The notes under the pieces were generated by a model. It did no database searches, had not been told where the DNA came from, and worked only from the letters and a program-made list of their open reading frames with translations. Position numbers and translations under genes: made by a program. Shown piece after piece: positions 8,554 through 60,220 of a DNA stretch of 64,000 bases. This DNA is from an uncultured Gammaproteobacteria bacterium (GTDB lineage Bacteria > Patescibacteriota > Microgenomatia > UBA10105 > UBA927), in the NCBI GenBank assembly GCA_964349125.1, contig CAYGFH010000001.1, positions 772,801 through 836,800 of the forward strand, given 5' to 3'. Within the stretch, counting starts at the first letter, position 1; each line of letters starts with the position of its first letter.

Positions 8554-9732
8554 ATGAATATAGCGATCATTTCCGGAACATTCCTGCCTCAAATAAATGG
8601 CGTATTAAGCTATGTTCTAGATACGGCCACAGAGCTTGCTCATCGTGGTCATTCTGTGACCGTATTTGCCCCGGCACCGGCAAAAAATACCCCGTACAAT
8701 ACATCAGGCTATCCATTTTCTATTGAGCTTCTCCCATCTATTCCTGCAGTTGTGTATCCGGATTTGAGAATCACAAAACCCACGCTCTACCAATTTACAA
8801 AAATATTCAAAGAGAGATCCATAGATATCGTGCATATCAATGAGCCCTATCCGATTGCGATTGAAGCTATGATAGCCGCAAAACTATTAAAAATTCCTGT
8901 CGTATTGACATTTCACACATTTTATCTGGATAAGGATTTTTTGAAGCACTTTAGATTTAACACCATGATAGAATTCCTTAAATCACCGCTGACCAAACTA
9001 AATATTAATTTTCATAATTATGCTGATTTGATAATCTGTCCTTCACTTTCAGGACAAAAAGAACTTGTGTCACATGGGTTAACCTCACCTAGTGTTATTA
9101 TTCATAACGGCATAAATGACGCGCTTGTCAGAAAAGATAGGGCAAAAACACGGGAGAACGTGAGAAGACGTTATGGCATTGATATTTCCTCACCTGTTGG
9201 CATGTTTGTAGGAAGATTATCATTGGAAAAAAGCATTGATGTACTGATACGTTCATGGAGTATTGTTACGCAAAAAAATCCGGCAGCCCGACTTGTGATT
9301 ATTGGGTATGGACCAATGGAACAGTCACTTCGACAATTAACCAAAAAAATGAAACTTACTAGCTCGATAATTTTTGCAGGGAGAGTACTCAGACATGAAT
9401 TACTGACTCAGGGAATATATACGATGGCAGATGTATATGTCTCAGCAAGCAAAATCGAAAATCAATCAATGTCTATGATAGAGGCAATGGCCTATGGATT
9501 ACCCATAGTTGCTACAAACAAACGGGGGGTGTCTGAGCTTGTAGATAATACAAATGGTATTCCTGTGTCTCCCGGGTATCGCCCTCTGGCAAAAGGAATC
9601 CTTGCATTGTTTCAGGATGAGAAACGCAGGGAACAGCTATCACACGCATCTGTGCTGAAATCCAAACGACATCTTACGTCCCACACCATAGGCGTGCTGG
9701 AACATGAGTATCAGCAGCTTATTCACAGGTAA
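8554..9732 (+). CDS. glycosyltransferase family 4 (GT-B)
   Basis: N-terminal IAIISGTF.P..NGV pattern. C-terminal EGFG/E..A.G.P-like GT1/GT4 block (SMIEAMAYGLPIV). Confidence 0.75.
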   Translation: MNIAIISGTFLPQINGVLSYVLDTATELAHRGHSVTVFAPAPAKNTPYNTSGYPFSIELLPSIPAVVYPDLRITKPTLYQFTKIFKERSIDIVHINEPYPIAIEAMIAAKLLKIPVVLTFHTFYLDKDFLKHFRFNTMIEFLKSPLTKLNINFHNYADLIICPSLSGQKELVSHGLTSPSVIIHNGINDALVRKDRAKTRENVRRRYGIDISSPVGMFVGRLSLEKSIDVLIRSWSIVTQKNPAARLVIIGYGPMEQSLRQLTKKMKLTSSIIFAGRVLRHELLTQGIYTMADVYVSASKIENQSMSMIEAMAYGLPIVATNKRGVSELVDNTNGIPVSPGYRPLAKGILALFQDEKRREQLSHASVLKSKRHLTSHTIGVLEHEYQQLIHR

Positions 9733-9747
9733 CGAAAACAAGCACGT

Positions 9748-10512
9748 ATGAAGACAATACTAGATGCTCGTTTCACGAGTCGACAGATTCCTGATGTATC
9801 CATACGGTATCGCAAAGTCGGGGCCGGAAAGAAACTACTGTTTCTTCATGGTACTTGGGTGGATCCATTTATATTCTCCGAATTGTTTACTACCCTCTCC
9901 AAAGAATATGAACTATTGATTCCTGATATTCCTCCGTTCGGGCGTTCCCGATTGGACTCAATGTTGACTTTGGAACAGTACGCTGTGTTGTTTGATGAAA
10001 TGTTGGAGTCACTTGGTTGGGATTCTGTAGTGGTTGTCGGTCATTCATTCGGCGGAGGAATTGCCTTGCATTTGGCGGCAGTAAGCCCCAAAATTCGTCG
10101 AGTTGTCGTATGTAATTCGATTGGCTTGCCGTTCAGGCGGCCGGAAATACTCGGAAAGTATCCCAAAATGGTATACCGGGCGCTCCGTAACCTTTCTAAA
10201 GAACATGACAGCACGATTCTCCGGAGGCTATTAATTGATGTAGGACGCGTGCTGCTGCATAATCCGATACCACCGATAGTGCAAACCATAACACAATGCC
10301 TATGCGAAGAGAAAATAATACTTCAAAAAATTTCTGCGCCAGTTTATATCATTTGGGGAAAACAGGATGAAATATTGCCGTTGTCCTATATAGAAAAAAT
10401 TCAATCACTTGTGCCTCGTGTGCACGTCAACTATATAACCGGGCACCACAATTGGTGCCTTGTCGATCAGAAACGGGCAGGCGATCTCATCAGGGAGTCT
10501 CTTGACAGCTAA
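9748..10512 (+). CDS. alpha/beta hydrolase
   Basis: Nucleophile elbow VVGHSFGGGIAL. HG-like motif LHGTWVD. Confidence 0.7.
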   Translation: MKTILDARFTSRQIPDVSIRYRKVGAGKKLLFLHGTWVDPFIFSELFTTLSKEYELLIPDIPPFGRSRLDSMLTLEQYAVLFDEMLESLGWDSVVVVGHSFGGGIALHLAAVSPKIRRVVVCNSIGLPFRRPEILGKYPKMVYRALRNLSKEHDSTILRRLLIDVGRVLLHNPIPPIVQTITQCLCEEKIILQKISAPVYIIWGKQDEILPLSYIEKIQSLVPRVHVNYITGHHNWCLVDQKRAGDLIRESLDS

Positions 10513-12644: not shown

Positions 12645-13142
12645 ATGAAAATATTACCCGGATCACCGTTGTGGAACTATCTCTCTGAACCAAAGCGAGT
12701 ATTGGCAGGGGATGGGAGTTTTCTTATTCAGGATAGCATGAACCACATCGATCAGGAGCCAACAGATTACTCGTATCTTGTCTTCCCATTTGCAAAATTA
12801 TATGAGGGATTCTTAAAAGATTTATTCCTGGATTTAGATATCATAGAGCGCAGAGACTATGAGAGCGATCATTACCGGATAGGAAAAGCATTGAGCCCAA
12901 ACTTAGCACGAAAACTGGGACGACGTAGCGCCTACTTGCAGATTGAGAATCGGTTCGGAAAAGACTTAGCCACCAGACTTTGGCACACATGGAAAAATGG
13001 ACGTAACTTGGTATTCCACTATTTCCCTCATAATTACAGGGCGCTAACGTTGGAGCAGGCGAAGCGGCTTGTGGAGCAACTTGTAGAGACAATGGATCAG
13101 GCGGTGAGAGACACGCAGGTTATTCGTGGAAATAGAGATTGA
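12645..13142 (+). CDS. hypothetical protein
   Basis: ORF of typical composition. No motif recognised. Confidence 0.5.
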   Translation: MKILPGSPLWNYLSEPKRVLAGDGSFLIQDSMNHIDQEPTDYSYLVFPFAKLYEGFLKDLFLDLDIIERRDYESDHYRIGKALSPNLARKLGRRSAYLQIENRFGKDLATRLWHTWKNGRNLVFHYFPHNYRALTLEQAKRLVEQLVETMDQAVRDTQVIRGNRD

Positions 13143-13182
13143 CACTACTTGCCATTGGCAGAGAAACCTATTATTGTAGTAA

Positions 13183-13860
13183 TTGATGGCAAAACAATCG
13201 AAAACAGTCCCACCGGAAGTACTCCCACTCGTTTCAGTGTATAGGACCTGGGCATGGGTTCTCTTAATTTGGAGCTTGTATCGATATTTTTTACGTCTAC
13301 CTGAATGGTTCGACGAATTTGTCGCAAAACCGCTCGTGTTTATCGGCCCTGTGCTTTGGTATTTGAAAAATAAAGAGCATCGCACTCTTGAGTCCGTAGG
13401 ACTCACCACAAAAAATATATTTAACAGTATCTATGTAGGTCTTGCATTTGGAATGATTTTTGCCATAGAGGGGATAGCCGCTCACGCGATGAAATATGGA
13501 AAGCTTGATGTGACTCCTATCGCAGCATTTAAAGAGTATGGATTTTTTCTGATTGTTGTGTCTCTTGCAACTGCCATCTCTGAAGAGATACTCAGCAGAG
13601 GCTTTGTGTTTAGTCGTATATATGAAAAAACAAAAAACTTGCCGTACAGCGCGTTCATGGGATCTATCCTTTTCATCCTGCTTCATGTCCCTATCCTGGT
13701 AACATCAAATCATTTGACCGGGACGACGCTTATCCTGTTTTTTGTCACTGATTTTGTATTGGCATTTGCAAACAGTATGTTATTTGCCTCTACGGGTTCT
13801 CTCATTGCTCCGATTTTGGTTCACGTGTTCTGGAATATGACCGTTGCTCTCTACCTGTAA
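13183..13860 (+). CDS. CPBP family intramembrane metalloprotease (CAAX protease-like)
   Basis: Motifs EEILSRGF, FILLHV and HVFWN (EExxxR / FxxxH / HxxxN). Confidence 0.75.
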   Translation: MMAKQSKTVPPEVLPLVSVYRTWAWVLLIWSLYRYFLRLPEWFDEFVAKPLVFIGPVLWYLKNKEHRTLESVGLTTKNIFNSIYVGLAFGMIFAIEGIAAHAMKYGKLDVTPIAAFKEYGFFLIVVSLATAISEEILSRGFVFSRIYEKTKNLPYSAFMGSILFILLHVPILVTSNHLTGTTLILFFVTDFVLAFANSMLFASTGSLIAPILVHVFWNMTVALYL

Positions 13861-19130: not shown

Positions 19131-20423
19131 TTAATTGTGAATTTTCAGTTTTAGGAAGTGTGTGGCACAGGACATGCACGGGTCATATGCACGGATAATT
19201 TTTTGAATCTCCAGCTCCAACTCTTCTTTGGTGAGACCCGTATTCTTTGACACCCAATCGGCAATAGCGATCTCAATGCCAATTTGATTTTGTCCCGTTG
19301 GAACGATAACTTTTGAATTTTTCACTTTCCCATCCACAGTCATTTCCACACGGTGAAAGAGCGTGCCACGGGGAGCTTCTATGATACCGATGCCGGTTGC
19401 TTCTTTTGGTGTATATGCCACCGGTGTCTCAGGCGTGCCAGTATATTGATGAATAAGCTCAATACTCGCATCTATGCTGTGAAGCATCTCTATAGCTTGA
19501 GCGAGATTATTGTGATAGATGTTTGTAGACGGAAACAGTGAGAGTGCAGAAGCCGCATCACGTTTTGTGTGATCATGGAGTGCATTTTTATTTAAGTTTA
19601 TCCGAGCAAGCGCTCCCACAAAATGAACATGGCCATCAAATAGATATCCGGTTGCATGAGAATAGGGGATATCCTGAGGATTCAAATGGGATTGGAATGC
19701 TTCAGGTGGAATCTTCACACCATCACTTGAAACAACTGTGCCATCTAAAAATGAAAAATCATCATTTATGGATGCGAGAAATTTGAGCTCCTGGTGGAGC
19801 GTAAACGTACAACGCTCAAATACTGAAATAAGGCGGAGTATCCTGGAGCGAATGTCCTCTAATTCAGGAAGAAGTGCCATGAGGCTTTCTTTTTTCGGGA
19901 TTTCATTGAACCCACCGACAGCGAGTAGTGGCGCATGGACTGCCCGTCCACCGGAAAGAACGCTGAGCTTATTCCCGACCTCTTTAACGGCAAAACAGTC
20001 ATGCACAAGCGCGTGCTCTTCTTCGTTTGTCTCATCGAAAGCAAGTATGGATTCCCGATTGTATAAGTCAGGAAGGACAAATACGTACAGATGGAGTCCA
20101 TGGTCCCTGATCATGAGTCCATAGTTGAGTAATTTCCGAAGTAAAGACGTCTGTGCGGAAGGAAGAATGGATAGACCATGTTCAACCGATGCGATACTTG
20201 CAAGTAAATGTGCATTGCTGCATGTGCCACAAATACGTGCCAGAAGGTGGGGAAGATTGGTCGCCGTTTTTCCTCTCACCGCCTCTTCAAAGAATCTCTG
20301 CATTTCCACAATTCCAAAGTGGCATTCTTCCAACACCCCGTTACGTATTTTTATATCCACTGAGGCTGTACCTTCTATTTTGGTTATTTCTTCAATTGTG
20401 AGATCTAGATTTTGATTGTGCAT
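19131..20423 (-). CDS. [NiFe]-hydrogenase large subunit, probably cytoplasmic group 3-like
   Basis: N-terminal RICGTCSNAH and C-terminal DPCMSCATH nickel-binding motifs. Start taken at MHNQ, 4 nt after the small-subunit stop; the ORF track extends it to 20537. Confidence 0.85.
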   Translation of the reverse strand: MHNQNLDLTIEEITKIEGTASVDIKIRNGVLEECHFGIVEMQRFFEEAVRGKTATNLPHLLARICGTCSNAHLLASIASVEHGLSILPSAQTSLLRKLLNYGLMIRDHGLHLYVFVLPDLYNRESILAFDETNEEEHALVHDCFAVKEVGNKLSVLSGGRAVHAPLLAVGGFNEIPKKESLMALLPELEDIRSRILRLISVFERCTFTLHQELKFLASINDDFSFLDGTVVSSDGVKIPPEAFQSHLNPQDIPYSHATGYLFDGHVHFVGALARINLNKNALHDHTKRDAASALSLFPSTNIYHNNLAQAIEMLHSIDASIELIHQYTGTPETPVAYTPKEATGIGIIEAPRGTLFHRVEMTVDGKVKNSKVIVPTGQNQIGIEIAIADWVSKNTGLTKEELELEIQKIIRAYDPCMSCATHFLKLKIHN

Positions 20424-20427
20424 AGAT

Positions 20428-20955
20428 TTAGGGAGCAGGGCGTAGGGGAGAGGGGGTAGCTGTTCCTGATCCCTCTTTGGATACGATACCAAACTCAACA
20501 AGGTATTTGTCCAACAGATCCAGAAATGGTTTCTCATTCATAGGGCACCCATTTACCTCGTCGTCAACAGTGACAACTTGACGAAGAAATTTTACCCGTT
20601 CAGCCTGTTTGAACCGAAGTAGTAGCGATGCTATTTCCTCTTTGGTGGGTGCATCAAATCTGTTTCTCTGACCACTCGGGAGGGCGCTACATGCGCACGA
20701 GCCAATGGCAACAAGCTTTGTCGCGAGGCTTCGAATCTTTTTTAATTTTTCTTCATGCTCGGCTGACATAATCGCGCCTTCAACAAACGCCACATCCATG
20801 GGTTCCCATTTGTTTGTATTTTGAAGTACTTTGGCGTGAATAAAATCTATATTCCGTTTCCATGACTCCCACCTTGTGTTCATGAGTTCTGTAAATACAA
20901 TTGTAGAGTCTTCACAGCAGGTAAACGTGAACCATCCGACACGAAGTTTTTTCAT
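20428..20955 (-). CDS. [NiFe]-hydrogenase small subunit (short, no Tat signal)
   Basis: FTFTCCEDS and GSCACS Fe-S cluster Cys motifs. 175 aa. No RRxF twin-arginine motif. Confidence 0.8.
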   Translation of the reverse strand: MKKLRVGWFTFTCCEDSTIVFTELMNTRWESWKRNIDFIHAKVLQNTNKWEPMDVAFVEGAIMSAEHEEKLKKIRSLATKLVAIGSCACSALPSGQRNRFDAPTKEEIASLLLRFKQAERVKFLRQVVTVDDEVNGCPMNEKPFLDLLDKYLVEFGIVSKEGSGTATPSPLRPAP

Positions 20956-35232: not shown

Positions 35233-35435
35233 TGTACGAAAAAACGGTATCTGCAAGTTTTCCGCCAAATCCAGATGGCGTAGTTGTTTACTCATCATAA
35301 ATCACTGCGCTATCTGGTCCGTTTTAATACCTCATAGTATTGACTATATACTTACTTATTTGATATACTCTTGCAGTTTCTCATTTTAGTAAAAAAAGGT
35401 TTTTTGCAACCTATAATTTTCTTTGATTGGAAACA

Positions 35436-35459
35436 ATGCACATTTACAGTACAAGAGTA
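35436..35459 (+). repeat. partial copy (3' 24 nt, 2 mismatches) of the 316-bp repeat, upstream of gene A
   Basis: ATGCACATTTACAGTACAAGAGTA versus the repeat end ATGCACATTAACAGTTCAAGAGTA. Confidence 0.6.
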
Positions 35460-35642
35460 GTTTAAGTATCCATATACGTGGGACGCACTAGAGGTAGGAG
35501 AGCTTTTTCTCTTACGTTTGTGCGTCTCAATAATTCCATCTTTTTTACACCAGGAGGTGAACCGTTCCAAAAAGTAAGTTTGTATGTAGTACGTTCGTAT
35601 GCACCAAAAATTGATTCAACTAATAGAAAAGGAAAAAATCGT

Positions 35643-36326
35643 ATGGATACCGTAATTGCAAAAACACGTTTGATCGGTTTGGGCGTCATCAATGATGCAT
35701 TTGACTGGGCGATTGACTCCATCTTTGATCTGACGGTGCTTCGTCAGAAGGGGCGTGACCTGGACAAGGTCATCAAGCGCGTCAATCTCATTCAGGACGG
35801 CGTGAACGCCCGCGTTAACGATCTGAATAAGTGGCTCAAGAGTGCCCGCAGGCACGCCAAAGAATTGGATCGCGATATTACCACCATCCTCAAAGACGGG
35901 GATGAATCAAATGATAGCGATGCCGTCCTCCTGCAGGCTGAACTGACGCCTCTTTTGGAGGAAATCGAAAAGCGCGATGGCAAACTCCAGGAAGCAATTA
36001 AGTCGCGAGACGAAAATCAGGAAATGCTCGACTTCCTGGCTCTGCGCCTCAAGCAAGTGACCGATAAGGTCCGCGAACTGACCGAGACCAAGCAAGAGAC
36101 CAAAACGCTCGAAGAAGCGGCAACTGCTGTCGAAAGCACTGAAGATGTTCTTAAGGAAACCGACGGCTTCCAGAATATCGGAGCCCGCATTCTAGAGAAG
36201 AACGGTCGCGCACGCCAGCGTTATGAACGGGTCACTGCCTCTGTCCAGGAATTGAGTGGCAAGGATTCCACACTGGCTGCCGCTCGCGCTAAGATCGCCG
36301 CTCGCAAGGAAGGTCTCACGAAATAG
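35643..36326 (+). CDS. coiled-coil protein, tentatively PspA/IM30-like
   Basis: Almost entirely helical heptad-like sequence. RBS AAAAGGAAAAAA upstream of the internal ATG at 35643. C-terminal block loosely PspA-like. Confidence 0.45.
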   Translation: MDTVIAKTRLIGLGVINDAFDWAIDSIFDLTVLRQKGRDLDKVIKRVNLIQDGVNARVNDLNKWLKSARRHAKELDRDITTILKDGDESNDSDAVLLQAELTPLLEEIEKRDGKLQEAIKSRDENQEMLDFLALRLKQVTDKVRELTETKQETKTLEEAATAVESTEDVLKETDGFQNIGARILEKNGRARQRYERVTASVQELSGKDSTLAAARAKIAARKEGLTK

Positions 36327-36343
36327 TTTTGCATTTCCATTGT

Positions 36344-36659
36344 TTGGAACTACTCTTGAACGAAATGGATAGTTCGAGGATGCAAGCAATGTCCTCCGGA
36401 GGACATTGACGTCGTGAGACAGTCAGTGTTGGTGCCATTAAGGTACCTTGGGATACAGATGATTTGTGATGTGTCGAATTTTATCGACGCCCCATAGACC
36501 ATCCGTATTCCACCCTCTGCAAACTACGGATGTGTATCCGTACTGATGAGTCCAAAAGGACGAATTTGCAGAAAGAAAAGAATCAAGAAATTATGACACC
36601 ACTCCATAGTCGGGGAGTGCGGTCGTAATCGACTGATGCACATTAACAGTTCAAGAGTA
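36344..36659 (+). repeat. 316-bp structured intergenic repeat, copy 1
   Basis: Identical to 38116-38431. 11-bp terminal inverted repeat TACTCTTGAAC/GTTCAAGAGTA. Internal hairpins include CAATGTCCTCC|GGAGGACATTG and competing ATCCGTA/TACGGAT/ATCCGTA. Confidence 0.9.
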
Positions 36660-36802
36660 GTAATAGTAAAACTGGATATGGGTCGATACAAGAATATACT
36701 TCAATGTATGTCTTTGTATCGTCCCATTTTCAGTTGAAGATACGGATGAATATTCGACTTGTTCGAAGCACCGCTGGAATTATCAAAAAAACTACCCAGG
36801 AG

Positions 36803-38104
36803 ATGACCCCCATGAAAGATATCCGTGCTCGATTGTTGACGCTTTTTTTGCTATGTATCTTAGCAGCGTCTGTCGTCCCCACGAATGCCCGCGCGCAATC
36901 CGCGTGTGATAATGGCATTATCGTGGATGAGACCAATTCCCTCAATGTGCAGAAAGTCTGCGAGGCAATGAAGTTGCTGGCACAGAGAGGCGTGGTAGTC
37001 GGTCTGTTTATATCGGATGAACGGTTCGGTTCGGATGATGAGTGGTATGTGCGCGTTGATGATGTGCAGGTAGAGACTCAGGCACGGTTTCCCCAAGTCA
37101 TTGATAGTGTTGAGCGAATCGAACTGCATCAAAGCGGCTACTTTCTCTCAATAGGAGTTGTTGAGGGAGAAATGACTGCAACGCTTGACATCGGTGGAAC
37201 CTTCGGTTCAGATACACCGATTCATACCGCTGATAAGAACGTAAAACAACAGGTGCTTACGGCAATGACAAGTAATGATCCAACGGAAGGTATTGTTGGA
37301 GCGTTCACCGAGGCATACAACGTCGCATATCCTCCCGATCAACCGTTCTCCATGCCGACGTCACAGCCTACTGCAACGCCCCGTCCTCCCGTGGACATGA
37401 AACCCGTTCGAAACTTTTTTGCCGGGTTTGCGGTGTTGGTGATTTTTGCGGTCGCAGGTTGGCTGTTTATCCGCTTTGGCGTTCCTGTGCTTTCGGAACT
37501 CAACTACCTCAAGGTGCTCATAGACCGTACCGGTGAAATCGTTCGTCAGGCAAATCTAGTGCTCGCGGGCGACGAACCTGAAGGAACCCTCCTTTATAGC
37601 CGCATGGAGGCTAACGGTCTTCATGAATATGCAGATATCGAAACGGCGGCTGTCGAGGCAATCCGCAGGACAATGCGCAAAATCGAGCTTGTCATGAGCA
37701 ATCGCAAGATGCTTTTGGACAACGATAAAGAAGGTGTTCGCACTTTATCCTATCGGGAACGTGTTGAGCAGTTGGAGCTTATCTATCTTAAGCTCATAGG
37801 CACGAGCAATACCGTGCTTGAGATGACGGAGGCAGAAATCGCTGAGCTCCTCCACCCCATGATGGGATTCACTCAGGCGGAAGCTGAGACAGATCCGGAC
37901 GTCCGTGCACTCCAATCTCAATCTCGCTTGCTCGAAGGAAAACCCCTGACAGTGAAAATGCGATACACGGAAATTCGTAATGTCACTGAGGCAGGAATCC
38001 TCATCGATATTAAAAACCTGAAGGCACAGCTTGCTGAATTGCGCGACGCGAAAATAGAAGATCGTCCAGCGGTGAACGTCTTTACAAAACGCACGCGTAA
38101 ATAA
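36803..38104 (+). CDS. TPM-domain membrane protein (YgcG-like)
   Basis: Signal peptide, TPM-like block (IVDETNSL...VVVGLFISDE...RIELHQSGYFLSIGVVEG), one TM, then a cytoplasmic helical domain. Start moved to ATG 36803 after RBS CCAGGAG. Confidence 0.55.
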   Translation: MTPMKDIRARLLTLFLLCILAASVVPTNARAQSACDNGIIVDETNSLNVQKVCEAMKLLAQRGVVVGLFISDERFGSDDEWYVRVDDVQVETQARFPQVIDSVERIELHQSGYFLSIGVVEGEMTATLDIGGTFGSDTPIHTADKNVKQQVLTAMTSNDPTEGIVGAFTEAYNVAYPPDQPFSMPTSQPTATPRPPVDMKPVRNFFAGFAVLVIFAVAGWLFIRFGVPVLSELNYLKVLIDRTGEIVRQANLVLAGDEPEGTLLYSRMEANGLHEYADIETAAVEAIRRTMRKIELVMSNRKMLLDNDKEGVRTLSYRERVEQLELIYLKLIGTSNTVLEMTEAEIAELLHPMMGFTQAEAETDPDVRALQSQSRLLEGKPLTVKMRYTEIRNVTEAGILIDIKNLKAQLAELRDAKIEDRPAVNVFTKRTRK

Positions 38105-38115
38105 CAGCACTGCGC

Positions 38116-38431
38116 TTGGAACTACTCTTGAACGAAATGGATAGTTCGAGGATGCAAGCAATGTCCTCCGGAGGACATTGACGTCGTGAGACAGTCAGTG
38201 TTGGTGCCATTAAGGTACCTTGGGATACAGATGATTTGTGATGTGTCGAATTTTATCGACGCCCCATAGACCATCCGTATTCCACCCTCTGCAAACTACG
38301 GATGTGTATCCGTACTGATGAGTCCAAAAGGACGAATTTGCAGAAAGAAAAGAATCAAGAAATTATGACACCACTCCATAGTCGGGGAGTGCGGTCGTAA
38401 TCGACTGATGCACATTAACAGTTCAAGAGTA
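38116..38431 (+). repeat. 316-bp structured intergenic repeat, copy 2
   Basis: Identical to copy 1 as read by eye. Confidence 0.9.
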
Positions 38432-38642
38432 TACATGTTGGTGATTGGACTACAAAATAGGAACAGAAAGTTTCATTTTTTTCTGGGCCTGTTAGTAGTC
38501 CAATATCAAATCCATTCTATTTCCAAGACAAGGAGCATGATCACGACCAATAATCAAAGGGGCGGTTCGCACTTAATTAAGTAAGCCTGGTCAGCTGAAC
38601 AATGGTGATATTTGAAACAAAAAAATCAATGTGGAGCAGAAA

Positions 38643-39815
38643 ATGAATATCAGAAATATCAAAATCGTTCTAGGACTGGTAATTGCGCTTTTGCTGGTTG
38701 CTGCATGCGGTCCCACCCCGCCAATCGTAGGGTATGGTCAGATCGTTGCAAAGCGCAACTTGAATTATGACCAGTTCAAGCAGCCGACAAGCGAAAAATA
38801 CACCAATTATTTCTATGTCGGTAGTAACTTTTCTTCCATCCAAAGCGATAACTTGAAGGTGGATCTTACGGCGGCAGTTGTGTCAGATGCTCAAGTGGGT
38901 ATCTATACCACCGGCTTTGACGAAAATCAGGTGCCCATCGTTCAGTATCTGCCGAAGGGCGTTTACGACAAAATCCCGGACGAGTTCGTTCGAGTAGTCG
39001 GCGCCGCGATTGTTGACGGTCAACATATGGGCGTGTACTGCAACTATACGGAAGGGCAAGAGTCTTTCCTCATTTTGCCTCCCGGCGAACATCCATACCC
39101 AGATTATATGGTGACGCACTGGCCCGTGGGAGACCGGATGTACCGCACTGTGAGCGATGGCGCGTTCAATGCGTACAAAGGCGGAGACACAGGGCCCACA
39201 GGACCTGGTGGCGGAGCTGATTTGGTTGAGACCAAGATCGACAAAGCGGATCTCAAGGACACCGATTTGGACCTGACATACACTGTGGACGTCGTGTTCG
39301 CCTACGATATCATCCAGAAAAACGCAAAGGTGCTCTGCGACCTCGGAAGTCCCGAGAAGGCAATCCAGCAAATGGTTGCGACACCGATGCGCGGAAAAGG
39401 TCGCACCATCACAGGACAGTTCGGCATCGATGTGGACACTCCACAAAATATCGAGCTTCTGCAAGCCGCTCTCCGCGATATGCTCATTGCTGAGAATGTT
39501 GGACTTCCTGGTAATTTCAAACACGTATCGCTTCGAAGTTTGGAAATTGGAACCGCTGAATATCAAGCCGCCATTCAACAGAATGCGACTGACCTGGCGA
39601 CTGCTCAAGCGCGTGGCTTGCTTCTCGCTCAACTGCAAAGAAACGCAGAAGATGAGAACACGCTTAAGGAAACCATTGCGGAAGGTTGGGCAACGCAGAT
39701 GGAAGCGCTCGGTTGCACTGACTCATGGCAATGCCTTTGGGTTGTTCTGAATGCAACCGAAAATACGCCGTATTTCAATGGAAATGACCTTCAGCAGCCG
39801 CCTCAGGTTCCATAG
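38643..39815 (+). CDS. lipoprotein with C-terminal SPFH/band-7-like domain
   Basis: Lipobox LLVAAC. C-terminal V.V.FAYDI...LR...G...VSLRSLEI...A...A.A..A pattern typical of SPFH. RBS GGAG 6 nt before ATG 38643; the track uses GTG 38631. Confidence 0.5.
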   Translation: MNIRNIKIVLGLVIALLLVAACGPTPPIVGYGQIVAKRNLNYDQFKQPTSEKYTNYFYVGSNFSSIQSDNLKVDLTAAVVSDAQVGIYTTGFDENQVPIVQYLPKGVYDKIPDEFVRVVGAAIVDGQHMGVYCNYTEGQESFLILPPGEHPYPDYMVTHWPVGDRMYRTVSDGAFNAYKGGDTGPTGPGGGADLVETKIDKADLKDTDLDLTYTVDVVFAYDIIQKNAKVLCDLGSPEKAIQQMVATPMRGKGRTITGQFGIDVDTPQNIELLQAALRDMLIAENVGLPGNFKHVSLRSLEIGTAEYQAAIQQNATDLATAQARGLLLAQLQRNAEDENTLKETIAEGWATQMEALGCTDSWQCLWVVLNATENTPYFNGNDLQQPPQVP

Positions 39816-39820
39816 CCTGA

Positions 39821-39832
39821 ACACTCTTGAAC
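39821..39832 (+). repeat. isolated copy of repeat terminal motif ACACTCTTGAAC downstream of gene C
   Basis: Matches the 5' inverted-repeat end of the 316-bp element. Confidence 0.45.
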
Positions 39833-40058
39833 TTTAACAATTGAATAATAGGGAATTGGGGACTCTCGAAAAGAGTGTCGTTCAATTTGATGCTGCCGCA
39901 TCTGAGATCTAGAGATTAATTAGTTAGGTGCCTTTGTGCGCCCTGCCAAATTTCTTTAGATCTTCCCTTGTTCGTTTGAGTTTCGATTATATAAATCGAG
40001 ACTGAAATGAGCAGGGGATGGTAATTATGCGTAAGGCAAATATGTTGATTTTACTGTG

Positions 40059-40088
40059 TTGACAAGATAGTGGGATTGCCAGTACAAT
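40059..40088 (+). promoter_or_regulatory. consensus promoter TTGACA-18-TACAAT
   Basis: TTGACA at 40059-40064 and TACAAT at 40083-40088. Confidence 0.6.
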
Positions 40089-40365: not shown

Positions 40366-40441
40366 TGGGCCCGAAGTTTACCTGGTTGAACGCTTCATTT
40401 GCAATGAAGAGGTAGTCGGTTCGAGTCCGATCGGGTCCACC
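40366..40441 (+). tRNA. tRNA-Ala (anticodon UGC), CCA encoded
   Basis: Full cloverleaf folded by hand. Acceptor GGGCCCG/CGGGTCC with G3:U70, D-arm GTTT/GAAC, anticodon loop TTTGCAA, T-loop TTCGAGT, A73, CCA. Confidence 0.9.
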
Positions 40442-40689
40442 ACGTAACGTCCGAAAGAGCGGACCATGTGGCAAGCCGCAGACAAGAAAGTTCTCGTTTC
40501 GAGACCAGTTACTTCTCTAAGTAACTGATCTCGCGACAAGAGCGCGTTTTGCTCATTAACATTTTGTAAATGACCTTTATATACATGCAGGTGAAATTCC
40601 TGGTATATGAAGTATTGTTATGTAATTAATAAGTAGTTGCATCGTAAGGGATAATCGATTTGATTCTCTTACATGTAAACCCCGATTTA

Positions 40690-40706
40690 ATCGGGGGAAA
40701 ATTTCG
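40690..40706 (+). other. hairpin CCCCGATTTAATCGGGG in the tRNA-23S spacer (partner-like hairpin at 44110-44126)
   Basis: Near-identical hairpins CCCCGATT(T/A)ATATCGGGG flank the 23S 5' and 3' ends, suggesting processing sites. Confidence 0.5.
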
Positions 40707-40764
40707 TAAAATGAACAATGGCCATCCCGCCGCCGAGGCGAGGATGGATCTTTTGTTCTCTGCA

Positions 40765-44095
<3,331 letters not shown>

Positions 44096-44325
44096 AACAA
44101 AGGTTTGATCCCCGATTATATCGGGGTGAAACTCTGTTCAGATACGAATTTTCTGTGTAGGAGCCATTTTGGTTATCCCTTACGGAGCAATTACTTGAGT
44201 GTGTGATGTCATTTACAAAATTTATATGAAGATCTCTGAAGGTATCCCGTTTCACGGGATAGTTCACAGTATGCTTTTTCTCTAGGAATCGAAAAAGCAA
44301 CTGTTCACTAACCGCTTTAGAGTCT

Positions 44326-44443
44326 TCCAGTCTTTTGAGCGACGTGGTACCACCCGATCCCTTTCCGAACTCGGAAGTGAAACGCGTTAGCGCCGACAAT
44401 ACTTGATTCGCGAGAATCTGGGAATATAGGTCAAGGCTGGGGG
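44326..44443 (+). rRNA. 5S ribosomal RNA
   Basis: CCGAACTCGGAAGTGAAACGCGTTAGCGCCGA loop C/helix III consensus. Helix I CCAGTCTT/AAGGCTGG. Confidence 0.8.
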
Positions 44444-44809: not shown

Positions 44810-45997
44810 ATGGCACATAAAAAGAAAACAGTTCAACAAACAGCAGAAAGCTTAGAGGTCGTCCAAACAGCAAAAACAGCTGAAAAGGCAGTAAAAAAAT
44901 CTTCAAAATCAGATACAGTCCTCACAACGATGGATGAGCTTATTGCTCAGGTTGGATATACCCTGAAAGGTATCCGAAAAGGAGATGTTGTAGAGGGAAA
45001 AATTACCCGCGTAACTCCTAAGGAAATTACCATCGATATTGGTGGAAAAACCGAAGGTGTTGTCATTGACCGTGAACTTGAAAACTATAGAGACATGCTT
45101 ATGGCTCTCAACGTTGGGGACACTGTCGTATGTCAGGTGATCGTAGCTGAAAACGACCGAGGACAGTCAGTACTTTCACTCCGACGGAGTATTTTTGAAA
45201 AGCGCTGGGAAACACTCGCCACGATTCAAAAAGCAGGCGATCCAGTGGAAGTTATCTTCAAAGAGCCGGTCCGTGGAGGTATTTTGGTCGACTATGGTGG
45301 CCTTCGCGGCTATATTCCACAGTCGCAGCTTGATAGTTCGCTCAGTAAACAGCTGGACAAGATTTCAGGCCGACGCGTGATGGTAAAAGTTGTTGAAGTG
45401 GATAAAGAGACAAACAGACTCGTATTCTCACAAAGATCAGTCACAGAAGGCGCATCGCTTGCAAAACAGAAAGAACTCTTGAGTTCTCTTACCGTAGGGG
45501 AATCCATACAGGCGGTGATTACCGGTGTCGTACCATTTGGTGCGTTTGCCAAGCTGACTGTTGAGAAAGATGGACAAAGCCATGAAATCGAAGGCTTAGT
45601 GCACATTTCCGAAATCGCGTGGGAAAAAGTCGAAGATCCTGGTCAATATCTGAAGACAGGTGATTCTGTAAAAGTGAAGATTATCGGTGTTGATGAAGCG
45701 ACAGGAAAACTGACATTGTCACTCAAGCAACTGCTTCCGGATCCATGGGAGCATGTTTTGGACATGTTCGAAAAAGATACAACTGTAAAGGGTGTGGTAT
45801 CCAGAGTATCTCCCTACGGGATATTTGTGACACTCTCACCGGGCGTAGAGGGGCTTATCCATATAAGCAAAGTAACACCGGGAAGTGAACCAAAACCGAA
45901 AGAAGAAATCAGTTGTCTGATAGAAGATATACAACCGGATAAACGAAAAATTAGTCTTTCTATGTCATTGACTGAAAAGCCAATGGGATACAGATAA
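44810..45997 (+). CDS. rpsA: 30S ribosomal protein S1 (four S1 domains)
   Basis: Repeated S1 motifs (G..V.G.V..V...G.FV.L..G..GL.HISE). Confidence 0.85.
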   Translation: MAHKKKTVQQTAESLEVVQTAKTAEKAVKKSSKSDTVLTTMDELIAQVGYTLKGIRKGDVVEGKITRVTPKEITIDIGGKTEGVVIDRELENYRDMLMALNVGDTVVCQVIVAENDRGQSVLSLRRSIFEKRWETLATIQKAGDPVEVIFKEPVRGGILVDYGGLRGYIPQSQLDSSLSKQLDKISGRRVMVKVVEVDKETNRLVFSQRSVTEGASLAKQKELLSSLTVGESIQAVITGVVPFGAFAKLTVEKDGQSHEIEGLVHISEIAWEKVEDPGQYLKTGDSVKVKIIGVDEATGKLTLSLKQLLPDPWEHVLDMFEKDTTVKGVVSRVSPYGIFVTLSPGVEGLIHISKVTPGSEPKPKEEISCLIEDIQPDKRKISLSMSLTEKPMGYR

Positions 45998-51713: not shown

Positions 51714-52932
51714 GAATTGCTCCAGCAGCTTTTATTCCTAGCTCAACTGCATAATTCGTGCCTCTATCCCAAGGGACAATACTATCCATATTTGCAAGAA
51801 ACACATTGGGGATAGGTGATTCTAGTGACGGAGCTTTTTTGGAGTAATTAACCTGATGAACAGGTTGAGCATAGGGAGCGGTGAATAGATATGATTTCGT
51901 AAATCGTAAATCGTAAATCGTTAATCGCGATAATTTGGATATATAGGGCATGAACTCTTTTAACAGTTGTTGTTTTGTCATTGTCAAATACCGGTGTCCG
52001 TTCGGCAGATAATTGCCAATATAGGTAATATGGTTGCCTCCATAATGTTTTTTATCCATAAAATTTGTATGGGCGACGATTGCCAGAAATGGAAATGTGC
52101 GGTCGAGAACTGAGAGCCAATATACAGAATCAAGAATCGGTTTTTTCGTTTCCAGAATAAGCACCTGCGCATGAAGATGGGGGATAGTGAGCGATGCTGG
52201 TTTTGCGATACCTGGGAATATTTTTTCAGCAATAGGCGTGGGCGTGGTTACGAGTGTTCTGTCGAATCTTGTATCGATTGACGTTACTGTGGTACCAGTT
52301 TTAATTATTCCACCCCGTTTTTTAATTTCCGAGACAATCGCATCAACGAATGTCTGGAATCCACCATCAAAATACACAAGTGAGGGCGTCCGTTTGTGAA
52401 TACGTGCCCAGAGCCAAGACGCAGCGATTGCGTTATCTAAATCGCCGAACTTACCAGCCATCAGTGGCTCCCAAATTGTCTCCCATGCCCTTAGTCCACC
52501 CCAGCGGATAAAAAATTCTTTTGCAGTAATCCCTTCAAGTGTTTGCCAAAATGGATATAGTTTGCAAAACGCCACGATTAAGCCAGTACGAAGTTTATCA
52601 GAAATAGAAAGGCCATTGAATTTTAATAAGTGCATGGGACTATCAAATTGATGAAACTCGCCACGCCAGTAATTTGATGTGTTTGGACGTTTTGTTATAA
52701 GTTTGTCGCCGATGCCCAATTCATGAGCCAGTGAGAGGATCGCCACATCATTGGTAAACATATGATGATATGCGCCTTCCAAGTGCCACTGCCAATCCTT
52801 CTGCCTGAATCCGTATGCAAGTCCTCCGAGATACGATTCTCGTTCAAACACGGTCACTGTATGTCCGGATTTGGTCAGGGTGTACGCAGCGGTTAGCCCT
52901 GTAATGCCCCCGCCAATGATTGCGATTTTCAT
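51691..52932 (-). CDS. FAD-dependent oxidoreductase (amine-oxidase/PPOX-like, Glf-like not excluded)
   Basis: N-terminal IAIIGGGITGLTAA...VTVFERESYLGG dinucleotide fold. C-terminal GTNYAVELGIKAAG motif. Confidence 0.65.
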   Translation of the reverse strand: MKIAIIGGGITGLTAAYTLTKSGHTVTVFERESYLGGLAYGFRQKDWQWHLEGAYHHMFTNDVAILSLAHELGIGDKLITKRPNTSNYWRGEFHQFDSPMHLLKFNGLSISDKLRTGLIVAFCKLYPFWQTLEGITAKEFFIRWGGLRAWETIWEPLMAGKFGDLDNAIAASWLWARIHKRTPSLVYFDGGFQTFVDAIVSEIKKRGGIIKTGTTVTSIDTRFDRTLVTTPTPIAEKIFPGIAKPASLTIPHLHAQVLILETKKPILDSVYWLSVLDRTFPFLAIVAHTNFMDKKHYGGNHITYIGNYLPNGHRYLTMTKQQLLKEFMPYISKLSRLTIYDLRFTKSYLFTAPYAQPVHQVNYSKKAPSLESPIPNVFLANMDSIVPWDRGTNYAVELGIKAAGAILASDSTQ

Positions 52933-57065: not shown

Positions 57066-58157
57066 ATGAAGCGAGACTCATACCGATTTTTAGCGTACAT
57101 ACTCATTATTGCTGTATGTTCTTTGAGTATGTTTCCGTTTTCTTCGATTGTTCAAGCAGGCACATTGACTCCAGCGAAGGTAACTATTTCGGATTCACGG
57201 GCAGGGAATGCCTCCACGACCTATGATTTTGCATTCACTACGTCAGTAACTACATCCATAAAACAACTGAATGTTGTGTTTTGTACCACGGCATCAGGAG
57301 CATGTTCGACACCGACCGGGATAGATACGACAGGAGCAACAAGAGCGAGTGATAACGTTGCAGGAACAGGGAGAACTGATGATTTCACAGGAAACGGAAC
57401 ACTATCAACGGTGATCACGACTCCCGCATCACAAGCCACACAGGCCGTAACTGTATCCTACACAGGGATAACCAATCCGACGACCACCAACACTACATTT
57501 TTTGCACGCATAACCACATACTCTGACACCGGGTCAACGGTGATTGATACGGCTTCCGTCGCGTTTGCTATTCTCACAAGTACGTCAATCGCTGTAAGTG
57601 CCTCTGTTGATTCCACATTTACGTTTTCGGTTGCGGCAGCCAATTCAGGAAGCGTGAATGGTGCATCGATTGATATAACAACTTCTACTGCAAACACCAT
57701 TCCATTCGGCACGCTCTCGTCAGGAGTGCCGAAAGTAGCAGCTCATGATCTCTCTGTGGTATCAAACGCATTAGGGGGATACACTATTACCGTAAAAGCG
57801 TTAGCAGATCCACCGCTTGTTGATGCCTCTAATAATATTGATAAGTTTAGCGGTACTAATGACACTCCAACGACCTGGTCGTCACCGGCCGGATCATCGG
57901 CGAATGTAAACACAGGGTTTTTCGGATACACGACGAACGATGCATCACTTGGGACCGGAACAGCAACCCGATTTACGGGCTCCGGAGGCAATAAATGGGC
58001 CGGGACAACAACGTCACCGCTTGAAGTGGCATATAGTGCCGTAGGGGTATCGTCTGCGGAAGTAACTCGTGTCGGATGGCAAGCTGAAGTAAACGGACTC
58101 CAGCCAGCCGGTGCATATACAGGCACTGTCGTGTTGGTGGCAACACCAACGTATTGA
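57066..58157 (+). CDS. secreted Thr/Ser-rich surface protein, WxL-like C-terminal domain (paralog 1)
   Basis: Signal/TM, T/S-rich region, C-terminal GYTTND...RFT...GW.AEV...AGAYTGTVVLVATPTY block shared by three paralogs. Resemblance to WxL is tentative. Confidence 0.5.
   Translation: MKRDSYRFLAYILIIAVCSLSMFPFSSIVQAGTLTPAKVTISDSRAGNASTTYDFAFTTSVTTSIKQLNVVFCTTASGACSTPTGIDTTGATRASDNVAGTGRTDDFTGNGTLSTVITTPASQATQAVTVSYTGITNPTTTNTTFFARITTYSDTGSTVIDTASVAFAILTSTSIAVSASVDSTFTFSVAAANSGSVNGASIDITTSTANTIPFGTLSSGVPKVAAHDLSVVSNALGGYTITVKALADPPLVDASNNIDKFSGTNDTPTTWSSPAGSSANVNTGFFGYTTNDASLGTGTATRFTGSGGNKWAGTTTSPLEVAYSAVGVSSAEVTRVGWQAEVNGLQPAGAYTGTVVLVATPTY
57150..57460 (+). repeat. 311-bp segment identical between paralog 1 and paralog 2 (other copy 59213-59523)
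   Basis: Nucleotide identity as read by eye across the N-terminal coding halves. Antisense ORFs 57221-57439 and 59284-59502 have identical translations. Confidence 0.85.
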
Positions 58158-59092: not shown

Positions 59093-60220
59093 ATGAAGTA
59101 TTCTGCCAAAACTATTCATAAAAAAATCCACCATACTAAGAAAGTAAGCGCTATTGGTGTGCTTATTGTGTTGCTTGTGAGCGTACCCTTATTCGCTCAG
59201 CTATCCACGAAAGTTCAAGCAGGCACATTGACTCCAGCGAAGGTAACTATTTCGGATTCACGGGCAGGGAATGCCTCCACGACCTATGATTTTGCATTCA
59301 CTACGTCAGTAACTACATCCATAAAACAACTGAATGTTGTGTTTTGTACCACGGCATCAGGAGCATGTTCGACACCGACCGGGATAGATACGACAGGAGC
59401 AACAAGAGCGAGTGATAACGTTGCAGGAACAGGGAGAACTGATGATTTCACAGGAAACGGAACACTATCAACGGTGATCACGACTCCCGCATCACAAGCC
59501 ACACAGGCCGTAACTGTATCCTATACAGGTATTACAAATCCTACGACGACAGATTCTACCTTTTTTGCCCGCGTGACAACATATTCTGACACCGGGTCAA
59601 CGGTGATTGATTCAGCGTCTGTCGCATTTGCCATTTTAACCACAACATCTATAGCCGTTACCGCATCGGTAGCATCAACGTTTACGTTTTCTGTTGCTGC
59701 GGTGACAACAGGATTGGTCAACGGGGCGACAATCGACGTGACAAGTACCACCGCAAACACTATTCCATTTGGAACACTGTCATCTGCAACACCTAAAATA
59801 GCTTCTCATGATCTTACAGTCACGACAAATGCAGCGAATGGATACACTGTCACGGTCAAAGCGGCTGCAGATCCGCCACTTGTTGACAGTACGAATAATA
59901 TAGATAAATTCAGTGGTACGAACGCAACACCCACAACTTGGTCGTCACCAGCGGGTTCTAGTGCGAGCGTAAACACTGGATTTTTTGGATACACGACAAA
60001 CGATGCAACGCTTGGTACCGGGACAGCCGATCGGTTTACGAGTTCAGGAGGTAATAAATGGTCAGGTACAACCACATCGCCGCTTGAAGTGGCGTATAGT
60101 GCGACAGGTATCGGCTCTTCTGAAGTTACGCGGATAGGATGGCAAGCCGAGGTGAATGGATTGCAGCCGGCAGGAGCCTACACTGGCACAGTCGTTTTAG
60201 TCGCGACGCCGACTTATTAA
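59093..60220 (+). CDS. secreted Thr/Ser-rich surface protein, WxL-like (paralog 2)
   Basis: Same architecture and C-terminal block as 57066-58157. First 311 bp of the mature region are identical. Confidence 0.5.
   Translation: MKYSAKTIHKKIHHTKKVSAIGVLIVLLVSVPLFAQLSTKVQAGTLTPAKVTISDSRAGNASTTYDFAFTTSVTTSIKQLNVVFCTTASGACSTPTGIDTTGATRASDNVAGTGRTDDFTGNGTLSTVITTPASQATQAVTVSYTGITNPTTTDSTFFARVTTYSDTGSTVIDSASVAFAILTTTSIAVTASVASTFTFSVAAVTTGLVNGATIDVTSTTANTIPFGTLSSATPKIASHDLTVTTNAANGYTVTVKAAADPPLVDSTNNIDKFSGTNATPTTWSSPAGSSASVNTGFFGYTTNDATLGTGTADRFTSSGGNKWSGTTTSPLEVAYSATGIGSSEVTRIGWQAEVNGLQPAGAYTGTVVLVATPTY

Follow-up and report, generated by a model that had tools for sequence, protein, structure and literature searches.

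A 316-nt structured RNA repeat with a flipped-pair hammerhead motif as a candidate self-cleaving processing module of a bacterial operon

Introduction

Hammerhead ribozymes are common but, to our knowledge, what they do in bacterial cells is still largely unknown. At intercistronic processing sites with stabilising hairpins and at the processing stems of rRNA operons, cleavage leaves structured ends, and complementary sequences bracket the mature RNA. In the synthetic RiboJ insulator, the 5' UTR is defined by a ribozyme together with a hairpin.

The closest described relatives of the locus reported here are the type III hammerheads (Rfam family RF00008, clan CL00010), their clusters in bacterial genomes and the plant retrozymes. 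A natural hammerhead in which the 15.1-16.1 pair is flipped to U15.1-A16.1 self-cleaves weakly, that is, less efficiently than usual (Perreault et al. 2011, PMC3088659); in tested ribozymes, the flipped pair lowered activity by at least 10-fold, and it is expected to disrupt the A15.1-G5 contact (PMC3088659). Hammerhead clusters that flank single genes are present in prophages (PMC3088659). In plant retrozymes, direct repeats of about 300-400 bp with type III hammerheads flank a central segment (PMC4918200).

Here, we describe a 316-nt repeat located between the genes of a bacterial operon. Hairpins in this repeat had been read in a first-pass annotation as a riboswitch or attenuator, or as a structured non-coding RNA. 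The element holding these 'switch-like' hairpins is, as judged from its sequence, a hammerhead with predicted cleavage within a folded RNA module of about 316 nt. A literature search for hammerheads in Patescibacteria returned nothing relevant.

Results

The repeat unit lies between the genes of a conserved operon

In the window, by which the whole 64-kb stretch of DNA analysed is meant, the unit is present once on each side of gene B (Table 1). Its designation as a repeat in the first-pass annotation was borne out by an exact recurrence of 36344-36659 at 38116-38431 (100% identity over 316 nt, a figure that derives partly from MAG assemblies). Tandem Repeats Finder returned no match at the locus, the unit not being a tandem repeat, and since proteins A, B and C are mutually non-paralogous, a simple tandem duplication of a unit together with a gene does not account for the array. 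No terminator-like site separating the three genes was found. No significant Pfam family was obtained for any of the three proteins, and a homologue search with protein A returned only protein A itself. A promoter-like site comparable to that upstream of the operon, TTGACT...TACAAT, is present in L003, one of the related loci. Another repeat pair in the window (57134/59197) was rejected as a paralogous gene pair unrelated to the 316-nt unit.

Table 1. Positions of the operon, of the repeat unit and of its predicted RNA elements in the window.
Feature	Position	Strand	Remarks
Promoter-like site TTGACT-18-TATACT, TG before -10 hexamer	35340..35369	+	Upstream of operon; consensus match only
Orphan 'tail' ATGCACATTTACAGTACAAGAGTAG	35436..35460	+	Gene A 5' UTR; homology to the unit's final ~27 nt
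Gene A	35643..36326	+	227-aa coiled-coil-like hypothetical protein; orthologues called in L001-L003
Unit copy 1	36344..36659	+	Structured RNA module between genes A and B; exact repeat, fold z = -8.46, covariation; covariance model R1, 353.8 bits
P1 5' strand 'head' CTACTCTTGAAC, copy 1	36350..36361	+	Pairs with 36649-36660; helix 1
5' domain	36373..36512	+	P3-P6; same helices in independent MFE folds of five lineages; compensatory changes in helices 2, 4-8
P3 hairpin	36373-36400	+	5' domain
Palindrome CAATGTCCTCC/GGAGGACATTG (joined)	36387-36408		22 nt, perfect in window
P4, GNRA loop	36402-36430	+	5' domain
P5	36431-36447	+	5' domain
P6, long hairpin	36449-36512	+	Tip is GTCGA...TCGAC; basal 3' strand holds upstream ATCCGTA
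GTCGA-ATTTTA-TCGAC	36473-36488		Conserved tip of P6
ATCCGTA, upstream	36501-36507		3' strand of P6 basal helix
Type III hammerhead, copy 1	36517..36571	+	RF00008; predicted cleavage after C36524 (position 17)
Stem III, copy 1	36517-36523/36565-36571	+	CTGCAAA/TTTGCAG
Stem I, copy 1	36525-36531/36536-36542	+	TACGGAT-gtgt-ATCCGTA, loop GUGU
TACGGAT	36525-36531		Stem I 5' strand
ATCCGTA, downstream	36536-36542		Stem I 3' strand
Core strands, copy 1	CTGATGA 36543-36549; GAA 36562-36564	+	Both intact
Stem II, copy 1	36550-36553/36558-36561	+	GTCC-AAAA-GGAC, loop AAAA
3' domain, long hairpin P7/P8	36582..36637	+	After A-rich linker 3' of hammerhead; helix 12 with both-side changes in 13/22 pairs
P1 3' strand 'tail' GTTCAAGAGTAG, copy 1	36649..36660	+	Fold, covariation, duplex energies
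Gene B	36812..38104	+	430-aa hypothetical membrane protein; one unit on each side
Unit copy 2	38116..38431	+	Between genes B and C; 100% identical to copy 1; covariance model R1, 339 bits
Type III hammerhead, copy 2	38289..38343	+	RF00008; predicted cleavage after C38296
Gene C	38631..39815	+	390-394-aa protein; L001 orthologue with precomputed Band_7 hit
Orphan 'head' GAACACTCTTGAAC	39819..39832	+	Directly 3' of gene C stop codon

Homologues of protein B fell into three clusters. The arrangement unit-gene B-unit, followed by gene C, tRNA-Ala and 23S rRNA, was found in two further species (L001; L002/L003) with a protein B identity of 78% and 74%, respectively, and diverged units were found upstream of gene C homologues of 54-67% identity in L033, L034 and L035 (partial). 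In each of the window, L001 and L003, the two unit copies match without a difference over 316-320 nt. Units of different genomes are 78-80% identical, a divergence similar to that of gene B DNA (75-77%). Short-read contigs end where identical repeats predict, and for the species of the window two independent datasets agree (L005-L007).

In L002, the upstream unit (9552-9852) has a divergent 5' half with a shortened P6 and is ~73-80% identical to other units over its whole length; upon comparison with the downstream unit (L002 11309-11620) and also with L003, its 3' half was found to be identical to the downstream unit. The independent Logan contig L004 ends exactly at the assembly-graph merge predicted from the L002 arrangement, and the contigs of L033 and L034 run unbroken through unit 2. 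The divergent half in L002/L004 and the unbroken assembly in L033/L034 imply that homogenisation of the unit copies is frequent, not universal; it is most simply explained by gene conversion. Local homogenisation of sequence is seen once more in this genome, in a ~370-nt tract (about 57150-57520 versus 59213-59583) that is essentially identical between the paralogous genes 57066-58157 and 59093-60220, which outside this tract are only ~75% identical.

Two further conserved elements were observed around gene C. A hairpin, GGACTACAAAATAGG...CCTGTTAGTAGTCC and equivalents, is located in the gene C 5' UTR, 3' of unit 2 (window 38445-38500, L034 ~400-470, L035 ~135-200), and a motif CCCTTGTTCGTTTGAG-hairpin-CTGAAATGAGCAGGG, for which no Rfam match was obtained, is positioned after gene C and before the rRNA promoter (window ~39965-40015, L001 ~13130-13190, L033 ~2565-2625).

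Each unit holds a type III hammerhead motif with a flipped core pair

An Rfam search of 36250-36800 with E-values up to 10 returned Hammerhead_3 (RF00008) alone and no other family. At relaxed thresholds, both copies matched with 42.3 bits (E = 6.6e-8 local, 7.7e-6 window-wide), which is below the gathering cut-off of 48.5 bits; scoring just under the Rfam threshold, such motifs stay unannotated. The core nucleotides C3 U4 G5 A6 N7 G8 A9 and G12 A13 A14 were all found to be present, with C3-A9 and G12-A14 intact and position 17 being C in the window, and the topology is that of an open stem III with loop-closed stems I and II. In place of A15.1-U16.1, the flipped pair U15.1-A16.1 (CGAAU...AAAC) is present in all copies. 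The cleavage triplet is AAC.

Conserved helices span the whole unit

The MFE of the unit on the + strand was -121.9 kcal/mol (z = -8.46), with none of 100 dinucleotide shuffles folding as well; the fold of the - strand gave z = -5.95. Separate folds of five lineages yielded P1, P3, P4, P5, the long P6, the hammerhead junction, the A-rich linker and the long P7/P8, and six lineages keep P1 and P3-P8 together with the hammerhead. When RNAalifold was run on plain MAFFT alignments, the hammerhead was mis-drawn and P6 was lost once divergent sequences had been added; therefore, a covariance model with a hand-corrected structure was built and the copies were realigned. In this alignment, which was fitted to the model and covers about six independent lineages with hammerhead stems invariant within them, standard pairs were found in 94.2% of 995 cells versus 34-45% with slid partners, and double changes in 34 of 101 pairs versus 5-14 when slid, figures which lean towards the structure and with which the independent folds agree. 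No shuffle reached the observed values. G-U pairs make up about 11% of the cells in the unit alignment; read on the opposite strand, these would be A-C, implying that the + strand is the functional one. We conclude that the unit in its entirety is a conserved RNA of several helices and that the region is non-random and structured.

The switch-like hairpins are parts of the hammerhead and of its surrounding fold

The palindrome, the GTCGA...TCGAC hairpin and the three 7-nt segments quoted in the first-pass annotation are all present where it had placed them. From the 7-nt segments, a riboswitch or attenuator had been proposed, in which TACGGAT would toggle between the upstream and the downstream ATCCGTA in mutually exclusive hairpins laid out as terminator and antiterminator. 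Both 7-nt complements do exist in the window, and L034 likewise has 7/7 (with one G-U). However, the downstream pairing in the window has a predicted probability of 0.94 versus 7e-10 for the upstream one, and enforcing the latter costs 13.4 kcal/mol. Across the lineages, the pairing probability of stem I is 0.67-0.96, and in five of them the upstream alternative has a predicted occupancy of at most 1e-6 and costs 7-29 kcal/mol to enforce. Complementarity of the upstream ATCCGTA to TACGGAT extends over 7, 6, 5, 5 and 7 of 7 positions in the window, L001, L003, L033 and L034, respectively, while the competing helices covary, as is evident at the base of P6 (AUACAGAU/AUCCGUAU in the window versus AUGUUGGU/GCCCGCAU in L003).

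Because the alternative pairing decays in relatives, falling to 5/7 pairs in L003 and L033, the terminator/antiterminator model was rejected by the criterion that the first-pass annotation had itself set. What had been taken for the central toggle forms, with its downstream partner, stem I of the hammerhead. No terminator-like stem with a U-run was found in or after the unit (36344-36812, + strand), and no riboswitch, aptamer or leader family matched in the Rfam search of 36250-36800. Toggling of TACGGAT as a riboswitch or attenuator is therefore scarcely credible, while the structured, non-random RNA of the first-pass annotation stands (z = -8.46).

The GTCGA...TCGAC hairpin was found to be conserved in relatives as the tip of P6. 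The 11-bp palindrome is perfect in the window and restricted to its lineage; L001 and L003 have an imperfect version, and L033 has none. Its left arm corresponds to the loop and 3' strand of P3, and its right arm to a short closing helix and the P4 5' strand; covariation is strong in P3 and P4 (helices 2 and 4), and the short closing helix shows one double change.

Hammerheads of the same type occur in candidate-phyla genomes

One genome per bacterial or archaeal species was scanned with the pattern CTGATGAGTCCNNNNGGACGAAT, yielding 25 loci, of which two (L013 and L032) were rejected as chance hits within GC-rich ORFs, one belongs to the sister genome of the window and the remainder are intergenic in MAGs. 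The L009 locus looks degenerate. The MAG titles at these loci comprise Saccharibacteria, Shapirobacteria, Woesebacteria, Gottesmanbacteria, Dojkabacteria, Parcubacteria and Microgenomates; a few are titled 'uncultured Gammaproteobacteria', and their sequences cluster with those bearing candidate-phyla titles. The flipped-pair hammerhead was thus found intergenically in about 20 Patescibacteria-type MAGs, and this rare core variant turns out, by its sequence pattern, to be widespread in candidate-phyla-type genomes. As the scan pattern fixed stem II and U15.1, stem II covariation is uninformative and the scan is silent on the frequency of the flipped versus the canonical pair.

A gap-free alignment of 21 hammerheads was made from the window, the sister genome L001 and 19 other MAG loci. 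Stem I was paired to 98.6% and stem III to 89.8%, together 95.5% versus 26-39% with slid partner columns, and double-sided changes were found in 12 of the 14 pairs of these two stems. Position 17 is C, A or U across the family and never G. The core positions are invariant in all 21 sequences, having been required by the scan pattern itself, and the conservation of loops I (GUGU) and II (AAAA) hints at a possible loop-loop contact. The covariation of the stems and the rule for position 17 are, at the level of sequence, the pattern of a functional ribozyme family.

Using nhmmer and model searches, only the ribozyme part of the 316-nt scaffold was detected at the other 23 hammerhead loci, implying that the scaffold is specific to the small lineage of the window. 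A metagenome scan with a DNA pattern that combines the unit head and the hammerhead core, and which parses correctly on the local loci, gave no match, and relatives of protein B were not found in a metagenome scan either. In viral contigs, the hammerhead pattern gave 0 hits, and thus no sign of a phage origin.

Two variant loci were observed. In the Saccharibacteria MAG L026, two hammerhead-like motifs (1227-1291 and ~1800-1860) lie ~560 nt apart, the second with the canonical A15.1-U16.1 pair and a U-U at 10.1/11.1; because the two motifs flank a short ORF, gene-flanking hammerheads occur elsewhere in these lineages, too. In the hammerhead of L034 (237-301), ~22 inserted nt fold into an additional hairpin within loop I, and the cleavage position is occupied by U; this is natural variation at sites where hammerheads tolerate it.

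The CPR-type relatives of the ribozyme argue against the 'Gammaproteobacteria' title of the nearest public genome. Downstream of the operon, 40367-44442 holds tRNA-Ala, 23S rRNA (40759-44096; low score for its length, with a group I intron at 43453-43722) and 5S rRNA, preceded by a strong promoter-like site, TTGACA-18-TACAAT, at 40059-40088; 16S rRNA was not found within the window. The genes at 6744-8495, 19131-20537 (- strand) and 44810-45997 include an ATP-dependent DNA ligase, a NiFe hydrogenase large subunit and a 4-domain S1 protein. With the ligase, the hydrogenase, the S1 protein and the divergent, intron-bearing 23S rRNA, that title fits poorly. A short tandem repeat, TCGTAAA x 4.4, was observed at 51897-51927.

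P1 half-sites bracket every cistron

The 10-mer ACTCTTGAAC of P1 and its complement GTTCAAGAGT have five exact sites in the 64 kb, all located in the A-B-C operon and in alternating order. In nhmmer searches, the orphan tail matched the 3' end of the unit in the window and in L002 and L003; three species conserve it, and its duplex with the unit heads has an energy of -18.5 kcal/mol. At the other end of the operon, exact ACTCTTGAAC follows gene C in the window, L001, L033 and L034. With the unit halves and these conserved orphan halves at the operon ends, every cistron has a tail upstream and a head downstream.

For the unit 2 tail, the duplex energies with two partners were compared. It forms 12 bp with the orphan head on the far side of gene C (-16.9 kcal/mol in L033 and -16.7 kcal/mol in L034) versus only 7 bp (-9.5 kcal/mol) with its own head in both loci; in L001, the values are -17.4 kcal/mol with the orphan head and -14.1 kcal/mol with its own, and in the window both energies are equal. 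The preference of the L033, L034 and L001 tails for the orphan head suggests selection on pairing across the cistron, beyond closure of the unit.

Discussion

The unit is probably a self-cleaving intercistronic processing and insulator module, which would cut the operon transcript into separate messages. As part of a polycistronic A-B-C transcript, the + strand module would fold co-transcriptionally, clamped by the 12-bp terminal stem P1, upon which the hammerhead would cut. Cleavage after C36524 and C38296 would give three mRNAs. Each upstream product would carry a 2',3'-cyclic phosphate and have its 3' end in the compact P3-P6 domain, and each downstream product would have a 5'-OH and start flush with the hairpin of stem I, after which come stem II and P7/P8; every message would thus obtain ends that are structured and resist nucleases, as well as a defined 5' UTR. 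Bacterial exonucleases and 5'-end-dependent RNases are hindered by structure at the 3' end and by hairpins flush with the 5' end. Three messages with independently protected ends and context-independent 5' UTRs would result, and with a tail upstream and a head downstream of each cistron, the processed mRNAs could pair their own 5' and 3' ends. After cleavage, P1 and stem III (~19 bp) would still join the products, which is awkward for a pure 'separator'.

An unlikely, though not negligible, alternative is that the unit is a structured non-coding RNA or protein-binding scaffold, with the hammerhead-like three-way junction being architectural and devoid of cleavage, and serves the adjoining cistrons as an element of stability, translation or localisation. 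This would accord with the disruption of the A15.1-G5 contact expected from the flipped 15.1-16.1 pair (PMC3088659), with the Rfam score under the threshold and with the fact that most of the conserved structure consists of non-hammerhead helices. However, no copy, and none of ~20 distant MAGs, shows a change at any of the 11 other core nucleotides, while the stems covary freely, and position 17 obeys the 'not G' rule; an invariant core with freely covarying stems is what selection on catalysis leaves behind, as opposed to selection on a junction alone. The DNA itself might instead be the element, either as a MITE-like sequence with 11-bp terminal inverted repeats or as direct repeats that excise or amplify gene B by recombination. 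Terminal inverted repeats of 11-12 bp are indeed present, the copies are 316-bp perfect direct repeats, and short-read contigs break at the units. Yet there are only two copies in the window and in the L001 genome, at orthologous positions in at least five lineages, and neither dispersed copies nor target-site duplications were seen. Helix-preserving double substitutions and G-U pairs on one strand furthermore point to selection at the RNA level, making a DNA element very improbable.

Self-cleavage could also serve the formation of a retrozyme-like circle, a reading to which we assign a low probability. Double cleavage would free the 1772-nt gene B RNA (36525-38296), the ends of which would re-form the unit, P1 and stem III rebuilding it around the nick, and sealing by the hammerhead or an RtcB-type ligase would give a circular, translatable mRNA. 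As in plant retrozymes, two identical direct repeats with type III hammerheads flank a central segment (PMC4918200); in addition, the repeat borders coincide exactly with P1, the permuted halves refold to the full unit by construction, and the unit copies evolve in concert in three lineages. On the other hand, genes A and C are likewise bracketed, yet they are unable to form a circle with a rebuilt ribozyme, and identical repeats are not universal, as the L033 and L034 contigs are unbroken through unit 2. Circular products of clustered bacterial hammerheads were sought and not detected by Perreault et al. (PMC3088659), and the locus has two copies per genome in fixed synteny with no target-site duplication seen. 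We favour the processing and insulator module. If the circle is real, gene B would be a chromosomal, protein-coding counterpart of retrozyme- and viroid-like circles, and if the P1 half-sites do pair head to tail, each operon mRNA would be a closed panhandle.

Comparison with known systems

With RF00008, the motif shares the three-helix junction, the CUGAUGA and GAA strands, the open stem III, the hairpin stems I and II, a cleavage nucleotide other than G and covarying stems I and III. It differs in that the near-invariant A15.1-U16.1 pair is flipped to U-A, in that its score is below the gathering cut-off and in that the ribozyme does not stand alone, being embedded in a conserved 316-nt multi-helix module. 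A natural clade, mostly of Patescibacteria-type MAGs, which keeps the 'forbidden' U15.1-A16.1 bears on the requirements of the catalytic core.

Like the clustered hammerheads of prophages and bacterial genomes (PMC3088659), several motifs would lie in one transcript and flank single genes, implying polycistronic processing. Unlike these clusters, the unit is located in a conserved chromosomal operon and not in a prophage, the repeats are long, identical and structured, and conserved P1 half-sites surround each cistron. The likeness to plant retrozymes (PMC4918200) consists in direct repeats of ~300-400 bp, each with a type III hammerhead, and in double cleavage, which would give a unit-length RNA with ends able to rebuild the ribozyme. 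The locus differs from them in having as its centre a conserved 430-aa protein gene and not a non-coding segment, in its bacterial host and in two copies at a fixed syntenic site in place of dispersed ones, with no target-site duplication or sign of retrotransposition at the unit.

At the sites of predicted cleavage, the RNA would cut itself in place of being cut by RNase III or RNase E. Compared with RiboJ, the module is much larger; structured ends and a defined 5' UTR would be alike. A ribozyme in a chromosomal operon, set in a large covarying scaffold with head and tail bracketing, offers a concrete model for ribozyme-based operon processing and mRNA end protection. The ribozyme and the kind of arrangement are known; new is their unusually elaborate form with a rare core variant.
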